From a virus (Duplodnaviria > Heunggongvirae > Uroviricota > Caudoviricetes): DNA of 64,000 nt. This document shows, in pieces, positions 30,622 to 31,275 of this stretch. The notes beneath the pieces are model-generated. The model was not told the DNA's origin and searched no databases. It worked only from the letters and a program-made list of their open reading frames with translations. Within the stretch, counting starts at the first letter, position 1; each line of letters starts with the position of its first letter. The position numbers and the translations under genes are program-made. The stretch lies in IMG/VR virus record IMGVR_UViG_2711768056_000005. One strand, 5' to 3'.

Positions 30622-31275
30622 ACTTGCCGGGTACGTCTCCGGCGAGGGCTTCCACCTCCGTATGCTTTTCGGCGCACCGCGCCCTGGCTGCAATTCGGTA
30701 ACAGGGGATGCACAACCCTGGCTTCCAGCGTGATTAGCGCCTTCAGCATGACGGGATATACCCGTAAATTCGTGGAACTGTACCCAAAGTGCTGTTAAGC
30801 ACCGCTGTTACGCTGAAAAGAAAACGCAACAGGAAAGGACGCTGACCAACAGAAGGCCCCTTCTCGTTCATCTGGTTAATCACACCAGCGCCCTTACCTG
30901 TTGTGCCTCCCCGTTCCCTAATACACAGACGGGGACACTCTGCGGTCGATTTTTTGACGGGGGACGACTCATACCCCGTGGCATCTGGCTTCTTAGGCCG
31001 CTACCATCATCAGATCATCGTTTGCATTTACTTTAATGGTCAGTTTCTAAACCGCCGCAAAGTCGCTAACCATGACGAAAACCCTGAAAAAAACGCCCAC
31101 CCGAAGATGGGCAAACTGGAAGCTCGTAACGCACTTCGGCGTTGCCACTTAGGCGCATGGTCAACCTGGCAACTCGGTGGTTTGTCTGGGAGGACTAGGC
31201 CCAGCCATGCTTACCGCCGCGCCTGTCGCGGCTAACAGCTAAATCGCTCTATAAATCACGATTCATTGAGGCGAT

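Follow-up and report, generated by a model that had tools for sequence, protein, structure and literature searches.

Trans-translation by transfer-messenger RNA (tmRNA) and SmpB is the main ribosome-rescue system of bacteria, and a number of phages (lambda-immP22 hybrids, Mu) depend on it in their growth to some degree. In tmRNA, the nucleotides U(-5)A(-4) are among the determinants that set the reading frame. Synthetic anti-ssrA oligonucleotides target the tag-coding region of this RNA. Here, a phage-encoded RNA with a tmRNA-like segment and an anti-tmRNA segment is described from a viral DNA of 64,000 nt (IMG/VR record IMGVR_UViG_2711768056_000005; this whole stretch is referred to as the window). 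It forms the central part, or module B, of a leader at positions 30622-31275 (minus strand).

A survey of 543 RefSeq bacterial viruses recorded ssrA in mycobacteriophages only, with Bacillus phage G and mycobacteriophage DS6A added from outside that set (PMC4131195). The partial tmRNA of DS6A was proposed to interfere with host trans-translation (PMC4131195). In addition, antisense DNA oligonucleotides against tmRNA are reported to suppress trans-translation in cell-free systems (PMC3384345).

Window positions 30400-31400 are 99.6-99.7% identical to phage P1 (AF234172, AF234173), and 30622-31275 corresponds, on the minus strand, to the non-coding segment next to the promoter of the P1 ban operon, which C1 represses. 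A sequence-only reading of this DNA had described a non-coding, hairpin-rich leader between an operator pair and tRNA-Asn that could be a regulatory RNA or a processing substrate. The position is correct on the minus strand and the stretch is non-coding, structured, conserved and located ahead of co-oriented tRNAs; it is not, however, one long leader. Its parts differ in distribution (module A in lambdoid dicF loci, module B in hundreds of unrelated phages and the last 144 nt in P1-like genomes only) and the leader is therefore a mosaic of separate modules. A terminator, the "dicF-like region" that the GenBank P1 record labels at 31078-31179 (its only annotation in the leader) and the tmRNA-like, anti-tmRNA central module were overlooked in that reading. 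The leader is probably a polycistronic precursor of noncoding RNAs, the central module of which would act on host trans-translation.

The central module and its relation to tmRNA

Module B (31084->30900, minus strand) is unannotated. A sensitive blastn search with 31090->30622 matched 328 of 50,697 phage records, over query positions 8-183. The matching phages belong to mutually unrelated groups: Vi01-like Ackermannviridae, G7C/ECBP1-like podophages, siphophages of approximately 46 kb, HK620, Klebsiella phages and P1. Module B is also present in 660 of 5,426 complete RefSeq E. coli genomes and is unannotated in nearly all of the phage and E. coli matches listed. It sits in large non-coding regions, such as the late-operon leader of HK620, a 3-kb tRNA-Lys region in phiEa2809 and a site directly upstream of a tRNA in ECBP1. 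tRNA genes are present in approximately half of the contigs checked and, where both occur, module B and the tRNAs are always co-oriented. The ECBP1 tRNA-like gene (contig L132, positions 2173-2251) starts approximately 12 nt after module B; it is named "tRNA-Thr pseudo-ACA" in the record and tRNA-Cys(aca), 79 nt, by ARAGORN, and its T-arm gives a small match to the tmRNA model RF00023. In a G7C-like contig with module B, ARAGORN calls a suppressor-type tRNA with the anticodon CUA, labelled tRNA-Pyl (L155, 9535-9610), in a six-tRNA cluster.

The homologues share an invariant sequence, UAAAUGCAAACGA, and from the GCA within it there are exactly ten codons to a stop codon. In the window, this tag frame (30993..31025, minus strand) reads GCA AAC GAU GAU CUG AUG AUG GUA GCG GCC UAA, encoding ANDDLMMVAA; it is preceded by an invariant UAAAU, and its stop codon lies in a hairpin loop. 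The ten-codon frame is found in 124 of 125 pattern hits and in 64 of 65 distinct sequences. Among these distinct sequences, neither of the remaining frames has a stable length, and the third codon positions vary most. Eighteen tag peptides are encoded, all of which start with AN(D/E) and end with AA or VA (AA in 37 and VA in 26 of the distinct sequences). Examples are ANDNEFKVAA in phiEa2809, ANDDVVLMAA in ECBP1 and ANEEMYLAVA in HK620; the corresponding tag of E. coli tmRNA is ANDENYALAA. As in tmRNA, the frame opens with a GCA resume codon, has no start codon and specifies a hydrophobic C-terminus of the ...AA type. The Rfam model tmRNA_permuted (RF04321) aligns its own tag region onto this frame.

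An alignment of 55 sequences supports a fold in which the 3' half of the tag forms a hairpin whose loop contains the stop codon. Two H-type pseudoknots come next (30908..30979, minus strand). The first, PK-a, consists of stems S1 (30979-30974/30962-30957) and S2 (30968-30965/30948-30945), and the second, PK-b, of S1 (30942-30939/30929-30926) and S2 (30935-30930/30913-30908). Changes on both sides were found at 18 of the 29 pairs, compared to 10.7 in shuffles and at most 12 in slid controls. Double-change cells numbered 153 (compared to 45.8), and 90.6% of cells were paired (compared to 32-49% in slid controls). All four S2 pairs of each pseudoknot covary. Pseudoknots surround the tag in tmRNA; module B has the two downstream of it, and the equivalent of the upstream pseudoknot (PK1) shows no covariation. 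An internal PK1-like helix, CUUUG/CAAAG, was dropped from the model for this reason.

Three GC-rich hairpins had been picked out from the sequence, with coordinates that are right to approximately 2 nt, and each of them is a helix of a conserved RNA with compensatory changes among homologues. The hairpin GACGGGGG...CCCCGT (30957-30979) is S1 of PK-a, CCCCGT...ACGGGG (30909-30934) is S2 of PK-b and GCCGCG-CCTGT-CGCGGC (31216-31232) is helix H1 of module A, described below. Conserved structure across homologues, on which the sequence-only reading had staked its proposal, is thus present and supported by covariation. Single-sequence folding energies are unexceptional (z = -1.27 for 31090-30900 and z = -1.15 for 30790-30622, neither significant), so the non-random status of the hairpins rests on the comparative data and not on thermodynamics.

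Module B is not a canonical tmRNA, an identity that was rejected on negative ARAGORN and sub-threshold Rfam results. Neither the window nor any of 43 homologous loci gave a tmRNA call with ARAGORN. The tRNA-like domain is absent, with no T-loop or acceptor pairing in the sequence (G3:U70, T-arm, 3' CCA), and module B can consequently neither be charged nor enter the ribosome alone. An Rfam scan, which had been suggested as a check, gave sub-threshold tmRNA hits in P1, phiEa2809, ECBP1 and HK620. The tmRNA_permuted score was 16-24 bits for P1 and 33.5 bits for phiEa2809 and ECBP1 (gathering score 47), and RF00023 scored at most 15.5 bits on module B.

It has also been considered whether module B is a genuine tmRNA that itself rescues ribosomes, either with an aberrant tRNA-like domain or in two pieces. 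In the two-piece form, the acceptor and T-arm would come from a neighbouring hairpin (for example 30466->30381, with a GGGUUCGAAUCCC T-loop) or from flanking blocks. The tmRNA-like architecture, the retention of U(-5)A(-4) ahead of the resume codon and the rank of tmRNA_permuted as best Rfam match would all suit such an RNA. So would the hairpins with T-arm-like loops that adjoin module B in contigs L137 and L151 and follow tRNA-Thr in the window. HK620, however, has neither a tRNA nor a T-arm gene nearby, and attempts to draw an acceptor stem with G3:U70 or a 3' CCA context fail. With ARAGORN negative in the window and in all 43 loci, every Rfam tmRNA score at or below 33.5 bits (against 47) and ssrA confined to mycobacteriophages among the 543 viruses surveyed (phage G and DS6A coming from outside the set; PMC4131195), this identity is highly unlikely.

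The second link to tmRNA is one of complementarity. The 5' domain of module B, a 40-nt arm (GGGUUUUCGUCAUGGUUAGCGACUUUGCGGCGGUUUAGAA; 31045..31084, minus strand), is antisense to nt 64-106 of host tmRNA, as found with nhmmer and RNAduplex. In an nhmmer search of the E. coli ssrA locus with a module B profile, the reverse strand gave the top match (E = 0.0027 in 1.6 kb) and the sense tag region ranked second. The P1 arm and E. coli tmRNA nt 64-106 form a predicted duplex of 32 bp, 31 of them Watson-Crick, at -38.4 kcal/mol. The target comprises the 3' half of PK1 (UAAAAAGCCGCAA), the frame-setting UAGUC within the linker, the GCA resume codon and codons 2-6. Three other representatives that were checked form 31-34 bp with tmRNA, and in 54 of 55 homologues the best tmRNA site starts at nt 60-69. 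Across the 55 homologues, the mean duplex energy is -36.5 kcal/mol; shuffled tmRNA gave -25.9 kcal/mol, and the mean z was -4.7. When a window was slid along tmRNA, the optimum (-36.4) fell at nt 61-111, and non-overlapping windows gave -14 to -23. Pairing is concentrated in three conserved blocks (GUUUUCG, GCGACU and UUGCGG..UUUUUA), and the linkers between them are variable. The arm pairs much more weakly with the tag region of module B itself (-14 to -20), and native tmRNA nt 1-63 reach only -20.3 with nt 64-111.

Extended, site-specific complementarity that is kept across homologues, as found here, is characteristic of trans-acting antisense RNAs. The lack of covariation in the proposed internal arm helix fits conservation by a fixed external partner. 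That one RNA should carry both an anti-tmRNA arm and a tmRNA-like template argues that module B acts on host trans-translation.

Module A and its terminator

The leader begins at the promoter Pban and its C1 operator, the bivalent Op72a/b (31275..31303, minus strand), which were placed by transfer of the AF234172 annotation (99.6% identity) and by the operator palindrome. The -10 sequence of Pban is TAATAT (31279->31274) and is overlapped by Op72a/b; in the P1 record, promoter and operator overlap the end of dmt. By the same transfer, the transcript starts at approximately 31267.

The first element downstream, module A, is a pseudoknotted RNA of approximately 95 nt (31141..31232, minus strand), identified by blastn homologues, alignment and covariation. 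It shows 75-79% blastn identity to more than 40 lambdoid phages and is homologous to approximately 95-115 nt that directly precede mature DicF in lambdoid prophages, Qin included. The lambdoid copies belong to the early-left operon; in mEp460 and Qin they lie upstream of dicB. Comparison of P1 with the dicF locus of E. coli K-12 Qin shows that the homology stops before the 53-nt mature DicF.

A pattern scan of viral contigs provided 63 distinct copies for alignment. Their fold contains four nested helices and a pseudoknot: H1 (31232-31227/31221-31216), H2' (31216-31213/31178-31175), H3 with a pyrimidine-rich loop (31204-31200/31190-31186), H4 (31173-31167/31147-31141) and the pseudoknot GYAUGG/CCAURC (31210-31205/31160-31155), all on the minus strand. 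In this fold, 96.4% of cells are paired, and 7 pairs are changed on both sides (2.8 in shuffles and at most 4 in slid controls). P1 has every part of the consensus, namely GCGCGGCGG(U/C)AAG...CAGGUUGACCAURCGC with H1-H4 and the pseudoknot, followed by a terminator. An alternative H4 suggested by RNAalifold (GGUUG.../...CAACC) was rejected, as it fits a compensatory U-A to C-G change worse than GUUGYCA/UGRCAAC. The stem of H3 (31186-31204) changes in sequence, and its loop is always the pyrimidine-rich, anti-Shine-Dalgarno-like UCCU/CUCC. Pairing of this loop with an adjacent GAGGA is feasible in Qin-type copies and impossible in P1. The Rfam scan of the window gave no hit over module A.

Module A is followed by a variable segment resembling a small RNA (sRNA) and an intrinsic terminator (31087..31140, minus strand), recognized by a terminator scan and by the place of DicF in Qin. 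The terminator (31113->31087) is strong, with an 8-bp stem, a UUCG loop and a run of seven U residues. Its GC-rich stem-loop GCCCAUC-UUCG-GGUGGGC spans 31112->31095, and the U-run 31093->31087. A hairpin and T-run occur within approximately 80 nt after module A in 102 of 106 distinct copies. The approximately 50 nt between module A and the terminator are DicF in Qin and unrelated sequence in P1 and cdtI-type phages.

A P1 DicF that blocks ftsZ was considered and rejected. No match to the Rfam DicF family (RF00039) was found in the window at E<=1, the homology covers the upstream element only and the predicted duplex of the P1 3' segment with ftsZ (-80..+40) is, at -28.9 kcal/mol, weaker than 95% of shuffles in this crude duplex test. 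The label "dicF-like region" is already known. Judged by its sequence relationships, module A is the conserved 5' domain of an sRNA unit of the DicF-locus type. It may serve as a processing scaffold, as an independent regulator through its pyrimidine loop or as a put-like antiterminator.

The last of these roles would follow the put RNAs of phage HK022, which are approximately 70 nt long, consist of two stem-loops and a triplex with a G35-A9 platform, and act in cis without protein factors (putL/putR; PMC9378689). Their antitermination works through the beta' zinc-binding domain. As nascent RNA bound to RNA polymerase, module A would permit read-through of the terminator and thereby expression of the tRNAs and ban from Pban. 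Its placement is suggestive, as a structured, conserved RNA that directly precedes an intrinsic terminator (102 of 106 copies) and lies, in P1, 35-125 nt downstream of a promoter with genes that need read-through beyond. This role is nevertheless quite unlikely. Module A showed no BLAST similarity to the HK022 immunity region, does not resemble putL or putR in sequence and differs from them in fold; membership of that family was rejected and the functional analogy kept. Furthermore, the lambdoid copies lie approximately 0.9 kb from their promoter, after several genes, and DicF production has been explained by termination and processing by RNase E and RNase III, with no antitermination invoked (PMC5069750).

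On the comparative and annotation evidence, a protein-coding function for part of the leader is barely credible. A plus-strand open reading frame (ORF) of 110 aa (30903-31235) appears in a mechanical ORF listing, and the match overlaps annotated coding sequences in JL22, SJ46 (as "hypothetical proteins") and some RefSeq plasmids. The 110-aa ORF lacks support as a gene and straddles modules A and B, which occur separately in other phages. Most records annotate nothing there, variation among homologues follows base-pairing and length changes fall in loops. The operon strand holds five mechanical ORFs of 31-46 aa, none of them supported as a gene, in line with the earlier description of the stretch as non-coding.

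Phage D6 (contig L245, 731-1500) has module B, the hairpin that follows it, the conserved leader and the tRNAs in common with P1. It lacks module A, and its homology to P1 ends at approximately 31115. In place of dmt and Op72, D6 has a different non-coding stretch of approximately 770 nt after pmgS; an extra tRNA-Ser(UGA) lies downstream.

From module B to the tRNAs and the downstream array

Module B is followed by a boundary hairpin, CACAACAGGUAAGGGCGCUG...CAGCGUCCUUUCCUGUUGCG (30825..30905, minus strand; 20 bp, 2 mismatches), which was found through repeat families and inverted repeats. Its 5' strand is a repeated block, GCCCTTACCTGTTGTG, that had been noticed from the sequence; the block exists, but it lies at 30890-30905 and not at 30888-30903, and three more copies are found at 29753, 30236 and 30451. 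One compensatory C-G to U-A change occurs in the hairpin in SJ46 and D6. The block pair CACAAC-AGGUAAGRGC/GYUCUUWCC-GUUGUG is found in many phages on either side of module B and of other RNA modules, and occurs four further times downstream of tRNA-Thr in the window. The blocks can pair locally (as in P1) or close a module, which gives them the look of punctuation or of processing signals. RNase III, whose sites comprise about two turns of double-stranded RNA, is a possible enzyme.

Downstream of a variable spacer (30766..30824, minus strand), which has many substitutions and indels among P1, P7, SJ46 and D6, lies a near-invariant pre-tRNA leader of 144 nt (30622..30765, minus strand). The latter has approximately 2 substitutions per 144 nt across these four phages, compared to a difference of approximately 9% elsewhere in the leader. 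Homologues of the 144 nt were not found beyond P1-like plasmids and phages, and the segment gave no structural signal (fold z = -1.15) and no Rfam hit. It adjoins tRNA-Asn(GUU) (30546-30621) and tRNA-Thr(UGU) (30468-30543), both on the minus strand and co-oriented with the upstream RNA modules. Each was identified by ARAGORN and by the Rfam tRNA model (74.5 and 72.9 bits, respectively).

These surroundings would suit a plain pre-tRNA leader or processing substrate, bearing for example RNase III, P or E processing signals. The modules would then be mosaic passengers of phage tRNA clusters without function in trans, and the resemblance and complementarity to tmRNA relics of their origin. The occurrence of module B and its flanking blocks in tRNA-containing non-coding regions, in the same orientation as the tRNAs, accords with this explanation, as do the likeness of the long boundary hairpins to RNase III substrates and the unremarkable folding energies. 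It is doubtful, however, on several grounds. Approximately half of the module B loci, including HK620, have no tRNA within the contig fetched. A relic would leave unexplained the ten-codon frame with coding-like variation in 64 of 65 distinct sequences and the two pseudoknots with compensatory changes. It would also leave unexplained why approximately 32 bp of complementarity to tmRNA are kept while the tag region of module B itself has diverged from self-pairing.

The noncoding array continues past tRNA-Thr (29573-30468, minus strand) with four block-flanked hairpin units, whose 5' strands lie at approximately 30466, 30252, 30047 and 29768. The segments between them open with a shared GUGAAUGCRCAGGCUGAUGYGC motif. 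The unit directly after tRNA-Thr (30381-30466, minus strand) has a stem of approximately 21 bp enclosing a small hairpin and a tRNA T-arm-like element (AGGGUUCGAAUCCCU); ARAGORN called no tRNA at 30381-30466. Units containing a T-arm adjoin module B in contigs L137 and L151 as well. The array ends in a sub-threshold match to the Rfam family STnc100 (RF02076; 29573-29693, 37.8 bits, E = 1e-5), followed by a T-run, and STnc100-like sequence was also seen by eye downstream of dicF in Qin.

In the P1 record AF234172, the ORFs upl and plp (L001, 2029-2598; approximately 29930-30500, plus strand, in the window) run opposite to the operon strand across the repeated hairpin units, and plp overlaps tRNA-Thr. 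Their plus-strand counterparts in the window are ORFs 29594-29923 and 29924-30343. These ORFs, like the hypothetical proteins of JL22 and SJ46, may be spurious. Between the array and a tRNA-Met/Ile(CAU) (28392-28467), the minus strand encodes a 78-aa hydrophobic protein (29303-29539) and a 275-aa lipoprotein-like SPFH/Band_7 protein (28495-29322; Pfam E = 1e-30). The P1 reference has tciA, tciB and tciC in the interval 28392-29539, indicating cargo replacement within the ban operon.

Proposed model and comparison with known systems

The order of elements suggests that the ban operon opens with a modular noncoding RNA array: Pban, the module A sRNA unit with its terminator, module B, the boundary hairpin, the conserved leader, tRNA-Asn and tRNA-Thr, further modules and eventually ban. 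Under the model favoured here, transcription would start at Pban once C1 repression is lifted, and the 654 nt would form the first part of the ban-operon transcript. Transcripts that end at the terminator would yield an sRNA of approximately 180 nt, made up of module A, the variable 3' segment and the terminator. Module B would be reached by read-through transcripts only. The 20-bp hairpin would mark the module boundary, and processing there and at the tRNA would release module B. The freed RNA would then pair with host tmRNA and change trans-translation during phage development. It could mask the host resume codon (and PK1), or a tag template of its own could be used instead.

Several observations weigh, or could weigh, against this model. 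A literature search turned up no expression or processing data for the leader. Between the promoter and module B stands a strong terminator, only approximately 180 nt into the transcript, and no promoter is predicted beyond it, so module B may arise by read-through alone. The alignments are shallow in places, and for module A most compensatory changes only split P1 from the lambdoid lineages. The Salmonella phages Vi01, STGO-35-1, SP-058 and SJ46 keep an E. coli-type block in the arm and do not track the single tmRNA difference compared (GAAACC in Salmonella, GAAAAC in E. coli); the predicted energies are nearly equal. The complementarity could also stem in part from an inverted duplication of ssrA instead of present function. 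Lastly, the phage tags resemble normal degradation tags, which leaves the benefit of swapping tags uncertain.

A more specific form of the model is unlikely. In it, the arm duplex would replace PK1 and hide the host resume codon, and the ribosome would use the phage UAAAU|GCA approximately 20 nt downstream. The tag added to rescued proteins would then be specified by the phage (ANDDLMMVAA, ANEEMYLAVA and others) and alter their fate; many phage tags end in VA, MAA or VAA and not LAA. The result would be a hybrid, two-piece tmRNA made from one host RNA and one phage RNA.

If action of module B on host trans-translation is correct, it would represent a new viral route to interfere with or reprogram core translation quality control. 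Phage tRNA genes are accompanied by large non-coding regions that lack annotation, and one of these would gain a function. Full-text searches found no description of a tmRNA-like or anti-tmRNA phage RNA, although their coverage was incomplete and a prior description is possible; module B is absent from Rfam 15 and from the tmRNA survey (PMC4131195). The predicted pairing partners are set to the nucleotide, and P1 is a genetic workhorse.

Among described systems, the DicF locus of Qin (in the dicBF operon) is closest to module A. In both, a homologous structured element directly precedes an RNA of approximately 50 nt and an intrinsic terminator, inside a repressor-controlled phage operon. The P1 3' segment differs in being unrelated to DicF and in lacking special complementarity to the start of ftsZ. 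The put RNA of HK022 offers an analogy for module A only, as a cis-encoded structured RNA after an early phage promoter and before terminators; the two are unlike in sequence and fold, and antitermination by module A is conjectural. STnc100 is a module of the same kind of array that lies outside the leader and has no sequence relation to module A or B.

For module B, the synthetic anti-ssrA oligonucleotides used in cell-free translation and ribosome display provide a parallel, being antisense to tmRNA and reported to block trans-translation (PMC3384345). Module B differs in being natural and phage-encoded, in a predicted pairing that extends over three blocks and includes PK1, and in the fusion of its arm to a tag-like template and pseudoknots of its own. 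The DS6A fragment is likewise a partial tmRNA carried by a phage, but DS6A keeps the tRNA-like domain only, whereas P1 keeps only the mRNA-like and pseudoknot part, together with an antisense arm. With tmRNA (SsrA) itself, module B shares a GCA resume codon, an A/U-rich single strand before it that includes U(-5)A(-4), a ten-codon AN(D/E)...(A/V)A tag with its stop codon in a hairpin loop, H-type pseudoknots downstream and sequence similarity over UAAAUGCAAACGA...GCxGCxUAA. It departs from tmRNA in having no acceptor stem, T-arm or CCA, in its size (approximately 185 nt, compared to approximately 363 nt), in its two pseudoknots instead of four, in a 40-nt segment antisense to host tmRNA and in being phage-borne, inside a polycistronic array of noncoding RNAs and tRNAs.

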